A stretch of 4,957 bases of DNA from Dictyostelium discoideum (GCA_000004695.1 CH709151.1:1-4957); one strand, 5' to 3'. Numbered from the stretch's first letter, positions 1 to 4,957 are shown. Numbers and translations are program-made. Notes: a model not told the origin generated them from the sequence alone.

Positions 1-408
1 GCGACGTTCACTTGGAAGTTAGATGGAAAGTTGAATACTTTATTCAATTCGGATATCTCATCTTTCTTGAGGATACATTCTTCTTCGACGAGTAAACCTT
101 GATTGTTTACCATATGTTTGTACTGACCAAGTAAAGTATCGGATAATTGATAATCGGTTGGAACATCGACATTGTTACTTGATTCATCATCACTTTGTTC
201 ATTCTCGGTGTCAGAGTTATCATGAGAAGGTTGGTTATGTGAATTGGTATTAGATGAGAACATAGGTTCTTTCATGAATCTTGTAAAGGCTAAAGAAAGG
301 TTGTTGATTTGATCCTCCATTGATTTCATTCTTAAATCAAAGGATTCAGCGCTATTAGAGGCAGAGGTACTACTCGAGGTATAATTATTATTAACAGGGG
401 TAGACATA
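1..408 (-). CDS. DIRS-1-type retrotransposon ORF1 (putative GAG-like protein), N-terminal 136 codons of copy A; partial, runs off window start
   Basis: The reverse complement of 1..408 translates uninterrupted as MSTPVNNNYTSSSTSASNSAESFDLRMKSMEDQINNLSLAFTRFMKEPMFSSNTNSHNQPSHDNSDTENEQSDDESSNNVDVPTDYQLSDTLLGQYKHMVNNQGLLVEEECILKKDEISELNKVFNFPSNFQVNVA. This is near-identical to the N-terminus of the intact 335-aa ORF at 3223..4230. Differences are a 3-bp indel and a few substitutions clustered in the first 10 codons and around codons 58-59. The ATG is at 408..406 on the minus strand. Confidence 0.8.
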
Positions 409-862
409 TTTTATTGTTGATATCTAAAATTATAATGGGAGAAAAATAATAATATTAAAAATTAATAAAGAGAAATAATTATTTGTATAAAATTTGTGTG
501 TGTGTGTATCTTAAATATATATAGGAGGAATTCCCAAATAAAATAAATCAAATTGTTTTAAGTTTTTAGTGCCACTATTTATACCGTTTTTATTTTCTTA
601 AAAATTTCGCAAAACTCAAAAAAATAAGGGTTTTCGACCCTTCACAACTTTGTGCATTGTGTCGGGTTCGGAATTTTTCAGTTTTTCGACCTTGCGGTAA
701 TGATCCCGTCATTGTGCCGGTTCGAAATTTTTTACTTTTCTTTCGAAAATTTTTTATTCTTCGAATGTTCTAGAACATTCTAAAAAATTATCTTAAATAT
801 TGGGAAATTCAAATAAATAAATGTTATTCATAATATATATATATATATATGATAATATAAAT
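409..862 (-). repeat. Left inverted-terminal-repeat/5' leader region of DIRS-1 copy A
   Basis: Non-coding AT-rich leader between the element terminus and the ORF1 ATG. It contains GAAnnTTC heat-shock arrays, a (TG)6-7 tract at 495..507, a TATA-like tatttatac (reverse complement) at ~571..583, and an (AT)n run at 828..848. It is mirrored in 2775..3222. Confidence 0.7.
757..780. promoter_or_regulatory. Heat-shock element: perfect alternating TTC/GAA array (ttcTTCGAAtgTTCtaGAAcaTTC) in the copy A leader
   Basis: The sequence shows at least four contiguous inverted nGAAn units with 2-bp spacing, the canonical HSE architecture. DIRS-1 is known to be heat-shock inducible from its ITR. Further TTCGAA / TTCnnGAA units lie at 721..727 and 743..748. 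Confidence 0.6.
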
Positions 863-1054
863 GATTGAAAGGAACTCTCTATCACCTATGCTGTACCTCT
901 TTTGAGTGTCAGTAAGTTTTCTACTGTGGAACCAAATGACTTTGAATTTATCACCTTGAATTTGATATAATACACCTGATAATGCTTTATCACTAACATC
1001 ACAATACAAGTGAAAACTACCCTTTTCAGAAGTTCCGTTTAAAAAATGTTGCAT
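863..1054 (-). pseudogene. Fragment of an LTR-retroelement-type (Ty3/gypsy, DIRS or BEL-like) RNase H domain; truncated at both ends
   Basis: The minus-strand ORF 824..1054 reads MQHFLNGTSEKGSFHLYCDVSDKALSGVLYQIQGDKFKVIWFHSRKLTDTQKRYSIGDREFLSI. It carries the canonical RNase H motifs of retroviral/LTR-type Pol proteins: (Y/F)-x-D-A/V-S-D-x-x-x-G-x-V-L-x-Q, then h-x-(F/Y)-x-S-R-K-L-x-x-x-E/Q-x-x-Y-S-x-x-(E/D)-(K/R)-E-x-L-x-I. The trailing IIYIIIYIYIYYE is readthrough into the (AT)n of the DIRS terminus. A stop lies 11 codons upstream of the Met, inside the tRNA-like sequence, so this is an orphan internal fragment. Confidence 0.55.
1041..1046 (-). terminator. Oligo(T)6 RNA polymerase III terminator immediately 3' of the tRNA-like unit
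   Basis: aaaaaa at 1041..1046 on the plus strand gives a T6 run on the minus strand, one nucleotide after the predicted discriminator base. Confidence 0.45.
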
Positions 1055-1119
1055 ATGGGAATCGAACCCGTGACCTCTTACATTCTAAGCTATCTATCTA
1101 CCATATGAGCTAAATAAGC
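1047..1119 (-). tRNA. tRNA-like Pol III unit (probable degenerate tRNA gene or pseudogene; anticodon not assignable)
   Basis: The minus strand reads GCTTATTTAGCTCATATGGTAGATAGATAGCTTAGAATGTAAGAGGTCACGGGTTCGATTCCCATATGCAACA. Residues 8-19 form a good A box (TAGCTCAtaTGG versus TRGCnnAGTGG). Residues 52-62 form a perfect B box (GGTTCGATTCC). An AGGTC variable-loop signature is present, the T-arm pairs ACGGG with CCCAT (4 of 5 pairs), and the overall length is a canonical 73 nt. TTTTTT follows directly. However, the 5' acceptor half (GCTTATT) cannot pair with the 3' half (ATGCAAC), no 5-bp anticodon stem forms, and (TAGA)3 slippage sits in the D-arm. Confidence 0.4.
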
Positions 1120-1167
1120 TTTGATTATTTTTCATTATTAATAGCTGAAATATTAATGTAAAAAAAG

Positions 1168-1234
1168 TGAGTAAGAAAAAAAACATCAACAACAACAACA
1201 TTTTTCATATAAAAAAAAGACTTAAAAATAAAAT
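1168..1234 (+). repeat. Direct repeat copy 1 (tgAGTAAGAAAAAAAACATCAACAACAACAACATTTTTCATATAAAAAAAAGACTTAAAAAT); putative leader (A-module-like) repeat of a TRE5-type element
   Basis: About 60 bp is near-identical to 1345..1431. It starts 49-51 bp upstream of the 5' end (1119) of the tRNA-like unit. Confidence 0.7.
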
Positions 1235-1300
1235 AAAATACACAAAGAGTAAATCATTGTACTTCTTTATTTTATTGTAATTTATTTTTTCTTTTTTTTT

Positions 1301-1325
1301 GAAAATTTTGCGAAGCAAAATTTTC
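1301..1325. repeat. Perfect 11-bp stem / 3-nt loop hairpin (gaaaattttgc gaa gcaaaattttc) between the two direct repeats
   Basis: Exact reverse-complement arms are read directly from the sequence. Confidence 0.5.
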
Positions 1326-1344
1326 AAAAAAAAGGAAAAAATAA

Positions 1345-1431
1345 TCAGTAAGAAAAAAAACATCAACAACAACAACATTTTTTATTTGATTATTTCATTT
1401 TTCATATAAAAAAAAGACTTGAAAAAATTAA
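1345..1431 (+). repeat. Direct repeat copy 2, with a ~20-bp internal insertion/duplication (ttatttgattatttcattt)
   Basis: Same sequence as 1168..1234, 177 bp further on. With the insertion, the repeat period is ~178-199 bp. Confidence 0.7.
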
Positions 1432-1613
1432 ATCTCTATACGTATCTAGTAATACAATAGTAATAGTTGCAAATCAGGATGGACAGGAGTTCACACCGAC
1501 AGCATTCAAGTAGTTAGGGATGCTAGTAATTCATTCAAACAAAAATAAAAAATTCCACTATTATTAGTATTACATCAAAATTTCCAGTTGATCACAAAGA
1601 ATATCTCACAACA

Positions 1614-2378
1614 ATGTCCACTGAGTTAAAAAATAAATTCATCAAATGTGAACCAGGAATCAACCATTCTACCTTTACCTTTATCGGAGTAAACACTGAA
1701 TGGGAACCAGAATCTAAAATAAAAGCACTTAACGACTTCACTGTTATAAATATCACTAAATGGAAAATTTTAAAATATAAAGAATCTATGGCCAAAGAAG
1801 AAAAAACCAATGAAAAACAAACATCCCAATCAACACAACAAACACATCAAACTCAACCTAATCAACATACTGAACAAGTTCAAATAATCCAAAATAATAT
1901 AAAAAATTTAACCGAACAAGAGCTAGCTGAATTAATTTTCAACAACCCACAAGAGGCTGAACAAGAAAAAGAAATCATTAAGGAGTTCCAACAACAAAAA
2001 ATTCAAAACCAAAACAAACAAGAAACAAATAATAGTGACAATACATCTTTCACCTCTCCACCCAAAGATAAAGATGAACCATCACTCAATTTAAGTTCTC
2101 AATTCGAAGTTAGCATTTCTACTCAAGAAATAAACACTATGCTTAATACTGACTTTATCTTTGATGACTCTTCACCAATACCAAATAAATTATTAGAGCT
2201 GATTTCACCTGAACCAATTGTTTTTAGCATCAGAGAATTGGATTCTCCAACTAAAGATAACATACTAAATGAACTACTATATCAACCAGAACAATCAATT
2301 TATGTTCCTCCTCCTCCTCCCTCCTCCCCCTCCACCCCAATTAAACAAACCAAGCAGACTAACAAAAATAAGTGGTAG
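1614..2378 (+). CDS. Hypothetical N/Q/P-rich protein, probably ORF1 of the TRE5-like element; terminates prematurely relative to a +1-frame continuation (frameshift in a CCT/poly-Pro tract)
   Basis: A 254-aa ORF with amoeba-style codon usage. It has a structured N-terminus (MSTELKNKFIKCEPGINHSTFTFIGVNTEWEPESKIKALNDFTVINITKWKILKY) followed by Q/N/T-rich low complexity and a PPPPPSSPSTP tract. A stop occurs 40 nt after the cctcctcctcctccctcctccccctccacccc run at 2306..2337. Confidence 0.55.
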   Translation: MSTELKNKFIKCEPGINHSTFTFIGVNTEWEPESKIKALNDFTVINITKWKILKYKESMAKEEKTNEKQTSQSTQQTHQTQPNQHTEQVQIIQNNIKNLTEQELAELIFNNPQEAEQEKEIIKEFQQQKIQNQNKQETNNSDNTSFTSPPKDKDEPSLNLSSQFEVSISTQEINTMLNTDFIFDDSSPIPNKLLELISPEPIVFSIRELDSPTKDNILNELLYQPEQSIYVPPPPPSSPSTPIKQTKQTNKNKW

Positions 2379-2583
2379 ACCAAAATTCAACATTAAACAA
2401 AAAAACATTAAAACGATCGAAGAAAATATAGAGGAACACCTCAAAGATTCTTTAAATAACTCATCAGAAACAATATCAACAAAGAGAAAATACCAGGAGG
2501 AGCCAAATCAAGAGAATGACCTCGAACAAATATCCACAATTATGAACAACAATTTACAAAAACTTATCAATCTCACTAACTAA
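2269..2583 (+). CDS. Probable C-terminal continuation of the same ORF1 in the +1 frame (real coding likely only downstream of the poly-Pro tract, ~2340..2583); the N-terminal MNYYINQNNQFMFLLLL part is out-of-frame overlap
   Basis: Past the proline tract the +1 frame stays open and reads LNKPSRLTKISGRPKFNIKQKNIKTIEENIEEHLKDSLNNSSETISTKRKYQEEPNQENDLEQISTIMNNNLQKLINLTN. It ends exactly at the TAATG overlap with the endonuclease-like ORF start, which argues it is genuine coding sequence displaced by a 1-nt indel. Confidence 0.4.
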   Translation: MNYYINQNNQFMFLLLLPPPPPPQLNKPSRLTKISGRPKFNIKQKNIKTIEENIEEHLKDSLNNSSETISTKRKYQEEPNQENDLEQISTIMNNNLQKLINLTN

Positions 2584-2699
2584 TGAACACAATTAAGATA
2601 GCAATCTGGAACGCCCAAGGACACAGCAAAGAAAAATGCACCTTTAAAGCCAATTTAAAGCAAATTCAATTTAAATTTGCTTTAAATTGGCTTTAAATT
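2583..2699 (+). pseudogene. Truncated 5' remnant of a non-LTR ORF2 (endonuclease-domain N-terminal motif); about 20 meaningful codons, then the frame runs into hairpin repeats
   Basis: It translates as MNTIKIAIWNAQGHSKEKCTFKANLKQIQFKFALNWL*. The I-A-I-W-N-x-x-G segment matches the conserved first motif of the exonuclease-endonuclease-phosphatase domain. From ~2640 the sequence is a palindromic minisatellite, so the domain is deleted. Confidence 0.35.
2643..2697. repeat. Perfect 24-bp inverted repeat (tttaaagccaatttaaagcaaatt / aatttgctttaaattggctttaaa) with a 7-nt loop; built from tandem tttaaagc units
   Basis: Arms 2643..2666 and 2674..2697 are exact reverse complements, counted base by base. 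The loop is caattta at 2667..2673. Confidence 0.8.
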
Positions 2700-2733
2700 T
2701 GCTTTTTAAAAAGGTGATTTTAAAGATATTTTT

Positions 2734-2766
2734 AAGGTCGTTTAAAATTACATTAAAAATGACCTT
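2734..2766. repeat. Second hairpin (aaggtcgttt ... aaatgacctt): 10-bp stem with one G-T mismatch, 13-nt loop
   Basis: Read from the sequence. It lies 36 bp after the first hairpin and 8 bp before the DIRS copy B terminus. Confidence 0.5.
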
Positions 2767-2855
2767 TTAAATTTATTTATATTATCATATATATATATAT
2801 ATTATGAATAACATTTATTTATTTGAATTTCCCAAATATTTAAGATAATTTTTTA

Positions 2856-2879
2856 GAATGTTCTAGAACATTCGAAGAA
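2856..2879. promoter_or_regulatory. Heat-shock element array (GAAtgTTCtaGAAcaTTCGAAGAA) in the copy B leader
   Basis: Alternating GAA/TTC units at 2-bp spacing. This is the counterpart of 757..780. Confidence 0.6.
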
Positions 2880-3048
2880 TAAAAAATTTTCGAAAGAAAA
2901 GTAAAAATTTCGAACCGGCACAATGACGCGATAATTGCGCAAGGTCGAAAAACTGAAAAATTCCGAACCGACACTATGCACAAATTTGTGAAGGGTCGAA
3001 AACTCTTATTTTTTTGAGTTTTGCGAAATTTTTAAGAAAATAAAAACG

Positions 3049-3056
3049 TATAAATA
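3049..3056 (+). promoter_or_regulatory. TATA box (tataaata) ~170 bp upstream of the ORF1 ATG
   Basis: A canonical TATAAATA lies ~170 bp downstream of the HSE array in a slightly GC-richer context (cgtataaatagtggcac). The inverted counterpart is at ~571..583. Confidence 0.4.
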
Positions 3057-3222
3057 GTGGCACTAAAAACTAAAACAATTTGATTTATTTTATTTGGGAA
3101 TTCCTCCTATATATATTTAAGATACACACACACACAAATTTTATACAAATAATTATTTCTCTTTATTAATTTTTATTATTATTTTTTTCTCATATTATAA
3201 TTTTAGATATCAACAATAAAAT

Positions 3223-4230
3223 ATGTCTACCACTGTTAATAATAACGAAGCCTCTAGTAGTAGTACCTCTGCCTCTAATAGCGCTGAATCCTTTGATTTA
3301 AGAATGAAATCAATGGAAGATCAAATCAACAACCTTTCCTTAGCCTTTACAAGATTCATGAAAGAACCTATGTTCTCTTCTAATACCAATTCAAGTAGCC
3401 AACCTTCTCATGATAACTCTGACACCGAGAATGAACAAAGTGAAGATGAATCAAGTAACAATGTCGATGTTCCAACCGATTATCAATTATCCGATACCTT
3501 ACTTGGTCAGTACAAACATATGGTAAACAATCAAGGTTTACTCGTCGAAGAAGAATGTATCCTCAAGAAAGATGAGATATCCGAATTGAATAAAGTATTC
3601 AACTTTCCATCTAACTTCCAAGTGAATGTCGCTCCATTCGGTACACCTGAAGGTATTACTGTATCATCCAACGTCAAGAACAATGATACTGACTTGTTGA
3701 TTGTCGAAAAGCGAATCAACGATAGCTTGAAACCTTTGCTTCTCATGTCAAGTATGTTATCATCTGATAGCTCTAATGTCGATGTAGAACTTATTAGTTA
3801 CTTAACTCAGAGTGCAATCGTCTTAGCCGTTAATGCTCAAGCATCGCTTAGTCGTGTCCGTCGTAACAACATCGCTAAAGAAATCTATGGTTCTGAAGTA
3901 CTCTTACCAATTAAGATCAAGGATACACCAAAGATGTTTGATGAAACTGAAACTGAACGTGTAAGAAAGCTAGCCAAGTCAATCAGAAAGAACAACGAAG
4001 CTAAACAATCATTGTTAAAATTGAATTATCATTCCAAGTCCAATGTCAAGAAATCAGTTAACTCAAGTGGTAATAACACTACAGGAAACAGTAGTAATAG
4101 TAAATCCAGTAGTGGGAGTAATGGCCGATCTAACAACTTCAATGGATCACCAAGTAATGTTGCATCAGGTAGCAACAATACCAAGTCTGCCAACGGTACC
4201 AACAACCGTTTTCAGAAGAACAAGAAGTAA
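3223..4230 (+). CDS. DIRS-1-type ORF1 (putative GAG-like protein), complete, 335 aa
   Basis: An intact ORF that begins directly after the leader. It is S/N-rich at both ends with a unique central region. The minus-strand ORF at window positions 1..408 reproduces its N-terminus. Confidence 0.85.
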   Translation: MSTTVNNNEASSSSTSASNSAESFDLRMKSMEDQINNLSLAFTRFMKEPMFSSNTNSSSQPSHDNSDTENEQSEDESSNNVDVPTDYQLSDTLLGQYKHMVNNQGLLVEEECILKKDEISELNKVFNFPSNFQVNVAPFGTPEGITVSSNVKNNDTDLLIVEKRINDSLKPLLLMSSMLSSDSSNVDVELISYLTQSAIVLAVNAQASLSRVRRNNIAKEIYGSEVLLPIKIKDTPKMFDETETERVRKLAKSIRKNNEAKQSLLKLNYHSKSNVKKSVNSSGNNTTGNSSNSKSSSGSNGRSNNFNGSPSNVASGSNNTKSANGTNNRFQKNKK

Positions 4231-4957
4231 ACTTACCAGTAGGTGGACGTCTGTTCCACCACAAACAAGTTTGGAAAGAATTGGGTCTTCCAAACTTTTG
4301 TCAAGAGTTCGTAAATGGATTAAAAATCCATCTGCTTCCAAATTTCAAGCCGATGCTAAACCCAATTCCGATTTCAATTCCGGAGGGTCCGAAATCAGAT
4401 TGCATCACAAAGGAAGTACAAGACTTGTTATTAGACGATGCCATCGAACAAGTACTTCCAAACCGTTATTCAAAGCGCGTTTTTTACTCCAACGTGTTTA
4501 CGGTTCCAAAACCTGGAACGAATCTACATCGTCCAGTTCTAGATTTAAAAAGGTTAAACACTTACATCAACAACCAATCATTCAAGATGGAAGGAATCAA
4601 GAATCTACCATCAATGGTCAAACAAGGTTATTACATGGTAAAACTCGATATCAAGAAAGCCTACCTCCACGTATTAGTAGATCCACAATACAGAGACTTA
4701 TTCCGCTTCGTGTGGAAAGGTTCGCACTACCGTTGGAAAACAATGCCGTTCGGGCTATCGACAGCTCCTCGTATCTTTACAATGCTGTTAAGACCTGTAC
4801 TTCGAATGTTGAGAGATATCAAGGTATCCGTCATCGCTTACTTGGACGATCTATTAATCGTAGGTTCAACAAAAGAAGAATGTTTATCCAACTTCAAAAA
4901 GACAATGGAATTACTTGTCAAACTAGGTTTCAAGTTAAACCTAGAAAAGAGTGTTCT
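4173..4957 (+). CDS. DIRS-1-type ORF2 N-terminal part: reverse transcriptase (open in frame 3 from 4173; first in-frame ATG at 4353); partial at window end
   Basis: The frame-3 translation contains VFTVPKPGTNLHRPVLDLKRLN, YYMVKLDIKKAYLHV, KTMPFGLSTAPRIFT and VIAYLDDLLIVG. These are RT motifs 1/2, A, B and C (YLDD). The open frame overlaps the ORF1 stop by 57 nt. It is missing from the supplied ORF track because it has no stop inside the window. Confidence 0.8.

Follow-up and report, generated by a model that had tools for sequence, protein, structure and literature searches.

Two opposed DIRS-1 ends on an unplaced contig

The DNA analysed here, referred to as the window, is a stretch of 4,957 bp from Dictyostelium discoideum (CH709151.1) that makes up a complete unplaced contig of strain AX4. 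It carries a long inverted repeat whose arms belong to two copies of DIRS-1, the founding tyrosine-recombinase retrotransposon, separated by a spacer of other sequence. Two RefSeq gene models are annotated on the contig, with exact protein entries P0121 and P0026, respectively: DDB_G0294178, the 254-amino-acid first open reading frame (ORF1) of a non-long-terminal-repeat (non-LTR) retrotransposon in the spacer, and the partial model DDB_G0294180, which fuses ORF1 and the reverse transcriptase frame of the right DIRS-1 copy. For D. discoideum DIRS-1, GenBank M11339 is the entry used in an earlier study (PMC7192593). The features of the two copies, including their 5' untranslated regions (UTRs), are as follows.

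1-407, minus strand: left copy, GAG-like ORF1, first 135 codons; ATG at 407-405, cut by the contig end
408-542, minus strand: left copy, 5' UTR with a (TG)n run, between terminal repeat and ORF1; pairs with 3089-3222
543-861, minus strand: left copy, left inverted terminal repeat, ending at the canonical terminus ATTTATATTATCATATAT (read on the minus strand)
576-583, minus strand: left copy, TATAAATA box, directed toward its own ORF1
763-780, no strand assigned: left copy, heat-shock element GAATGTTCTAGAACATTC within the terminal repeat, four perfect alternating GAA/TTC units
2775-3088, plus strand: right copy, left inverted terminal repeat, beginning at the canonical terminus
2856-2873, no strand assigned: right copy, heat-shock element GAATGTTCTAGAACATTC within the terminal repeat
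3049-3056, plus strand: right copy, TATAAATA box (TATA), directed toward its own ORF1
3089-3222, plus strand: right copy, 5' UTR, pairing with that of the left copy
3223-4230, plus strand: right copy, intact GAG-like ORF1 of 335 amino acids, of which only 3223-3632 lies inside the inverted repeat
4203-4957, plus strand: right copy, start of the reverse transcriptase frame, open to the contig end, with a YLDDLL motif (Pfam RVT_1, 1.3e-24, on 4203-4955)

Several lines of evidence identify both copies as DIRS-1. A GAG-like ORF1 followed by a frame containing reverse transcriptase is present in the right copy, and this ORF1 shares 99% identity with ORF1 proteins of D. discoideum DIRS-1 (P0003-P0010, including AX4 DDB_G0267292). 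For comparison, we used three loci from long-read assemblies that contain eight further DIRS-1 left ends; loci L005 and L007 belong to an AX4-like assembly (six copies) and locus L004 to the assembly of another strain (two copies). Related full copies in these loci carry Phage_integrase genes, and their right terminal repeats align, in inverted orientation, with window positions 543-861 and 2775-3088 at 89-98% identity; on the basis of this match the terminal repeat was defined as ~315-320 bp. All eight of the further left ends begin with the same sequence, (A)TTTATATTATCATATAT, corresponding to window positions 861-862 in the left copy and 2775 in the right copy, which are the true element ends. 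Head-to-head DIRS-1 left ends had been proposed in an initial annotation of the window, and the ORF1 identity, the RVT_1 domain and the terminal-repeat matches bear out that assignment. The window holds only left terminal repeats, with the 5' 861 bp of the left copy and 2,183 bp of the right copy present. The heat-shock pattern GAAnnTTCnnGAAnnTTC has perfect matches at 763-780 and 2856-2873, with 0.04 matches expected by chance per window; two matches were reached in 0 of 200 shuffles.

The right terminal repeat of DIRS-1 is known to carry a 27-bp extension. BLAST homology to right terminal repeats continues from the left repeat of the right copy into 2752-2774 (~23 bp past the left terminus), which raised the possibility of such a right-type extension here. 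By eye, this match rests on a common ATTAAAAAT and AT-rich sequence, and we treated it as chance.

Gapped local alignment joins positions 1-872 and 2763-3632 into one inverted repeat, with 839 of 878 columns identical (95.6%). The other columns comprise 25 mismatches and 14 gaps, and identity over ungapped columns is 97.1%. In a repeat search, the inverted blocks form a collinear chain running from 1-374/3259-3632 (98%) to 800-872/2763-2835; the longest exact blocks measure 128, 105 and 73 bp. By segment, the ORF1 part reaches 95.9% identity, the 5' UTR 97.0% and the terminal repeat 95.6%. The final ~10 bases of the alignment (863-872/2763-2774) are probably a chance match of AT-rich sequence. 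Measured from element end to element end, the spacer covers 863-2774, or 1,912 bp. The alignment thus agrees with the earlier estimate of arms that are reverse complements at roughly 95-98% around a 1.9-kb spacer, except that the right arm had been drawn 13 bases too far, to position 3645; the partner of window position 1 is 3632, and 3633-3645 are unpaired within the window.

Independent origin of the two arms

Long arms in exact inverted register, both stopping at the same position of the element, might also arise by local inverted duplication, in which one DIRS-1 end was copied across the spacer by a fold-back, a breakage-fusion-bridge event or palindromic amplification. We therefore examined an alignment of ten copies of the left 860 bp, consisting of both arms and the eight further DIRS-1 copies. 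In this alignment the substitution distance from arm to arm is 2.8%. The right arm differs by 0.8-1.7% from the six copies of the AX4-like assembly and by 4.4-4.7% from the two copies of the other strain, and the corresponding values for the left arm are 2.2-3.2% and 5.6%. Distant copies are thus 2-3 times closer to the right arm than the left arm is, and the two arms do not stand nearer to one another than to copies at other sites. No column of the alignment contains a derived state common to both arms. A similar picture was obtained at the protein level, where the right arm is identical to other copies at 133 of 135 positions and the arms agree with each other at 129 of 136; the left-copy ORF1 translation also matches other genomic copies at 129 of 136. 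Neither arm shares any flanking non-DIRS sequence with the other, and homology stops at the natural terminus of DIRS-1, which accounts for their common end.

Because the right arm is nearer to other copies than to the left arm, and because the arms have no derived sites in common, we conclude that they represent two independent insertions. Local inverted duplication, with arms that are not closest relatives and with no co-duplicated flank, is extremely improbable, and the inverted repeat cannot be taken as evidence for a palindromic rearrangement.

The copies also appear to differ in age. Relative to the consensus of the ten-copy alignment, the left arm carries 28 differences and the right arm has 8. 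Over its entire length, the right copy agrees at 98-99% with several copies in a chromosome-level assembly. These sequence comparisons suggest that the left copy is the older insertion and the right copy a young, near-consensus element with open reading frames. Within the left-arm ORF1 (window 190-200) the residues EQSDDE are found where young AX4-type copies have EQSEDE; the D state is common in diverged copies of other strains, which fits a left copy that would belong to an older DIRS-1 lineage.

Composition of the spacer

All parts of the spacer are truncated transposon pieces, and four segments can be distinguished, one of them derived from a transfer RNA (tRNA).

866-1042, minus strand: Ty3/gypsy-type (Skipper/DGLT-like) RNase H fragment, ~60 amino acids, bounded by the DIRS-1 end and the tRNA relic
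1046-1120, minus strand: tRNA-derived relic with A-box-like TAGCTCATATGG, perfect B box GGTTCGATTCC and a downstream T-run, no cloverleaf
1155-2620, plus strand: TRE5-type non-LTR retrotransposon, 5' 1.46 kb, with its 5' end facing the tRNA relic
2621-2774, plus strand: TTTAAA-rich hairpin-forming repeat module, first ~150 bp, starting CACAGCAAAGAAAA and cut by the right DIRS-1 end

The gypsy-type fragment lies in an ORF at 824-1054 that matches Pfam RT_RNaseH_2 (4.4e-16) and RT_RNaseH (1.2e-13). Only this ~60-amino-acid piece of RNase H is present, without LTRs or other domains, and its DNA matches L004 2181-2328 at 83.5%. The tRNA relic directly adjoins it. At 1046-1120 no tRNA was called by ARAGORN with default settings, relaxed settings returned only implausible intron models, and Rfam gives only an 11.7-bit match to the transfer-messenger RNA (tmRNA) clan. 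By eye, the acceptor and anticodon stems do not pair, so that a cloverleaf is lacking, and TFIIIC could still bind the relic.

The largest segment starts at ~1155, ~35-45 bp from the opposite-strand relic, in which no tRNA can be called. It begins with a duplicated 5' module (1155-1228 and 1332-1425, direct repeats with a spacing of 177-197 bp), followed by ORF1 at 1614-2378 (the 254 amino acids of DDB_G0294178), an out-of-frame continuation at 2269-2583, and the first 38 bp only of ORF2 (ATG at 2583, MNTIKIAIWNAQG). The ORF1 stop falls just after a C/T-rich run (~2300-2340), and the closest relative, P0122, has 439 amino acids; the break in the frame suggests a frameshift. A full relative in locus L008, from another strain, shares 81-95% DNA identity, carries an ORF2 with RVT_1, and starts ~50 bp upstream of, and facing, a tRNA-Lys(UUU) gene, a placement that has been described for TRE5 elements. 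Homology to this relative ends exactly at window position 2620. Complete ORF1 and ORF2, the latter with endonuclease and reverse transcriptase, are thus not found in the window, and the segment is a defective remnant rather than a complete TRE5 element. In the L008 relative, the 5' module is also tandemly duplicated (7645-7739 and 7850-7941; spacing ~205 bp).

The fourth segment belongs to a module that elsewhere measures ~330-400 bp; ~80% matches with the same 5' boundary occur at L005 326-477 and 2097-2260 and at L008 15220-14890. It contains a palindrome (2633-2669/2671-2707), and its RNA is predicted to fold into two strong hairpins (-48 kcal/mol, z = -8.0). A microRNA identity for 2632-2708 was considered and rejected: the Rfam matches lie far under gathering scores (best 33.7 versus 100 bits), and the structure is a generic hairpin. 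The L008 copy of the module has an A-rich tail at its end, as is seen in non-LTR 3' UTRs.

Reliability of the contig

Given this composition, we considered whether the contig might be chimeric, with reads of different loci joined through common repeats, so that the two DIRS-1 ends would not truly lie 1.9 kb apart. The window is a complete unplaced AX4 contig that consists of repeats only, and in the 2005 assembly of the AX4 genome project repeats longer than ~5 kb could not be resolved and more than 5% of reads were left unassembled (PMC2665215). Exact-protein look-ups of the junction-spanning 76-amino-acid ORF, the window's own ORF1 and DDB_G0294180 returned no record in other assemblies. The private residues of the left arm occur in none of the 171 proteins compared (search with the 135 left-arm amino acids), and the left copy was not located in the long-read assemblies. 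One candidate for the left junction in a long-read assembly, the RNase H and DIRS ORF1 fusion P0072, was discarded; its locus, L004, is a different DIRS cluster.

Other observations speak against a chimera. Of the 878 aligned columns, 39 differ between the arms, which therefore cannot be a fold-back cloning artefact. The spacer element appears to be of a low-copy lineage, judging from its ORF1, for which a collection of 5.8 billion sequences yields three homologues only (P0121-P0123; 100%, 66% and 46% identity), that is, one AX4 entry and two distant relatives. Logan short-read unitigs, built from independent sequencing runs, cover 1391-2650 at 99.5% and are unbranched, including the 2620/2621 junction; ORF1 turned up on only three unitigs of ~1.2 kb, and this coverage stops short of the DIRS junctions. 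These junctions lie within ~300 bp (left) and 155 bp (right) of the low-copy core, and at such short distances each 860-bp arm should fall within one Sanger read of a unique anchor. Together, these observations make a chimeric contig unlikely.

Origin of the arrangement

The order of the pieces suggests how the arrangement may have arisen. A tRNA gene would first have attracted the TRE5-type non-LTR element to a position ~40-50 bp upstream, with a Ty3/gypsy-type element located downstream of the same gene. Two DIRS-1 elements would then have integrated later, one on each side and in opposite orientations, possibly by tyrosine-recombinase insertion of a circular intermediate, as in the published model. 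The left copy would have interrupted the gypsy RNase H domain and the right copy the TTTAAA-rich module. With their 5' ends pointing inward, the first ~860 bp of both copies (terminal repeat, 5' UTR and start of GAG) form the 870-bp inverted repeat. The inverted repeat is thus very likely a by-product of transposon nesting, in which two separate DIRS-1 insertions came to lie across older debris, and it would have no dedicated function. The initial annotation had overlooked that the arms are unrelated copies, that the spacer is a four-part transposon mosaic and that the window is a leftover unplaced contig.

The same geometry recurs elsewhere. In the chromosome-level sequence CM142509.1 (locus L007), a minus-strand left end at ~1-2065 faces a plus-strand left end at ~6643-8709; the pair is 98% complementary over the reported 1,775-bp block, with ~4.6 kb between the element ends. 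Through a third copy, opposite left ends are also found at 1116-2065 and 9551-10500 of this locus, 7.5 kb apart and reported as 100% complementary over 950 bp. This second pair represents a far better substrate for hairpin formation or recombination than the pair in the window. DIRS-1 has been said to integrate preferentially into existing DIRS-1 sequence, and in centromeric regions it is found in both orientations, mostly fragmented by later insertions (PMC2665215). A head-to-head arrangement is therefore ordinary for the D. discoideum genome and already known, and as an annotated unplaced contig of known transposon families the window matters little beyond bookkeeping.

Five points weigh against nesting by independent insertion, or against parts of it. 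The physical linkage of the two junctions lacks independent confirmation, the contig being a repeat-only leftover of a Sanger assembly, and protein-based look-ups found neither DIRS junction in long-read assemblies. DIRS regions are reported to contain almost no TRE elements (PMC2665215), which makes the neighbourhood somewhat unusual. Some of the private differences of the left arm could be sequencing errors at a contig end of low coverage; the substitutions are clustered inside the ORF, and read errors are therefore an incomplete explanation. Finally, the arguments from small RNAs and expression that follow would be only as specific as the published DIRS-1 profiles from which they come, which do not describe this locus itself.

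The unusual neighbourhood may also be informative. One clear case of a TRE element in DIRS regions has been described, in the inner DIRS region of chromosome 2 (PMC2665215), and the orphan contig might belong to that region or represent a second case. With a TRE5-type element and a tRNA relic enclosed by DIRS-1 copies, the neighbourhood is uncommon and might help to place the contig.

Transcription, hairpin RNA and stability

Either terminal repeat of DIRS-1 drives strong transcription of a downstream reporter (PMC4482531), and green fluorescent protein (GFP) was expressed from the right LTR only in forward orientation, with none from the reversed right LTR (PMC3950715). Each arm contains a perfect heat-shock element and an ORF1-directed TATAAATA box, and since these assays concern the same repeat, they indicate that the heat-shock promoters face outward, as had been annotated. 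Each copy's heat-shock/TATA promoter would therefore be directed into its own element, and transcription would run away from the spacer at either end. None of the window's promoters reads across the two arms: those of DIRS-1 diverge, and the 5' module of the TRE5-type element is directed only into the right arm.

This layout bears on the possibility of a functional hairpin locus, in which read-through over both arms would produce a double-stranded RNA (dsRNA) stem of ~870 bp that Dicer would process into DIRS-1 small interfering RNAs (siRNAs). The long near-perfect inverted repeat of a hairpin-type siRNA locus is indeed present (870-bp arms, 95.6%), and the arms would pair over ~870 nt. The earlier statement that DIRS-1 is a major source of small RNAs in Dictyostelium agrees with published data, in which DIRS-1 is the main siRNA source of D. 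discoideum and full-length antisense transcripts start in the right terminal repeat (PMC4482531, PMC3950715). Small RNAs from the terminal repeat are moreover symmetric and independent of RrpC, as expected of Dicer products (PMC3950715).

Most DIRS-1 small RNAs, however, are asymmetric and RrpC-dependent, and deep sequencing mapped to the DIRS-1 consensus showed that the 5' end of GAG lacked small RNAs altogether in wild-type cells (PMC3950715). This part of GAG makes up ~410 nt of the 860 nt of each arm, about half. A diced 870-bp stem would cover these first 410 nt of GAG on both strands, so the published gap speaks against a hairpin precursor. Transcription is also unfavourable: the DIRS promoters diverge, the TRE5 5' module serves just the right arm, and the right LTR is silent when reversed (PMC3950715); in addition, transcripts between opposed inverted terminal repeats (ITRs) were inferred to terminate inside the ITRs, at polyadenylation sites (PMC4482531). 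The known route to DIRS-1 small RNAs consists of transcription in sense and antisense direction from the two terminal repeats together with RrpC, an RNA-dependent RNA polymerase (PMC4482531, PMC3950715); opposed terminal repeats within one element suffice for silencing (PMC4482531), and this route requires no head-to-head pair. The proposal that a transcript crossing the structure would be a siRNA precursor is thus unsupported and in part contradicted, and the spacer element's promoter, suggested as a source of read-through, points into the right arm only. We consider a functional hairpin locus to be very unlikely.

The inverted repeat had also been described as prone to cruciform formation and fork stalling. 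Both the distance between arms and their divergence are reported to make hairpins, cruciforms and breaks less frequent in duplex DNA (PMC10164571); with a spacer of 1.9 kb and arms that diverge by 4.4%, the repeat therefore belongs to the stable class, and the instability claim finds no support. The same paper shows that repeats with wide spacing and divergence are still able to fold back where DNA is single-stranded over very long stretches (PMC10164571), and rare fold-back events may follow extensive resection.

It is highly unlikely that occasional read-through of the full-length antisense RNA from one DIRS-1 copy across the spacer into the other forms a long hairpin, or that fold-back after resection near a chromosome tip gives rise to dicentric chromosomes. 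Were such read-through to occur, the hairpin could seed RrpC-independent, strand-symmetric small RNAs over the terminal repeat, and head-to-head DIRS-1 pairs would be primary triggers of DIRS-1 silencing. The published small-RNA profiles already weigh against a hairpin precursor.

Comparison with known systems

Hairpin-RNA loci that give rise to endogenous siRNAs in animals and plants are built from transposon sequence arranged as a long inverted repeat around a loop. The window likewise contains a long inverted transposon repeat with a loop, although this loop is made of 1.9 kb of unrelated transposon pieces and the GAG part of the arms has no published small RNAs. The engineered knock-down cassette with opposed DIRS-1 ITRs (Friedrich et al. 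2015, PMC4482531) resembles the window in that two inverted terminal repeats flank an insert. The repeats of the cassette point inward, however, and convergent transcription yields dsRNA of the insert, whereas the two left repeats of the window point outward and the spacer is not convergently transcribed from them.

The TRE5-type segment shares with the TRE5 family (TRE5-A, TRE5-B and TRE5-C, and the internally deleted TRE5-A.2) a modular, duplicated 5' UTR followed by ORF1 and the start of ORF2; its 5' end would likewise face a tRNA-type gene ~40-50 bp away, if the relic derives from one. It differs from the family in that ORF1 is frameshifted, ORF2 is lost after 38 bp, and the 3' module is cut by DIRS-1.

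The closest parallel is provided by DIRS-1 itself and its centromeric clusters. In contrast to a complete element, the window covers no more than the 5' parts of two copies (861 bp and 2,183 bp), with the recombinase ORF, the internal complementary region and both right repeats beyond the contig ends, and the TRE5-type element and tRNA relic of its neighbourhood are reported to be nearly absent from the clusters (PMC2665215). In other respects the window and the clusters agree: both have a terminal repeat of ~315-320 bp with a heat-shock element, a TATA box and the canonical left terminus; both encode the 335-amino-acid GAG-like ORF1 (99%) and a reverse transcriptase; and in both, fragmented DIRS-1 copies lie in both orientations beside Skipper-type elements.

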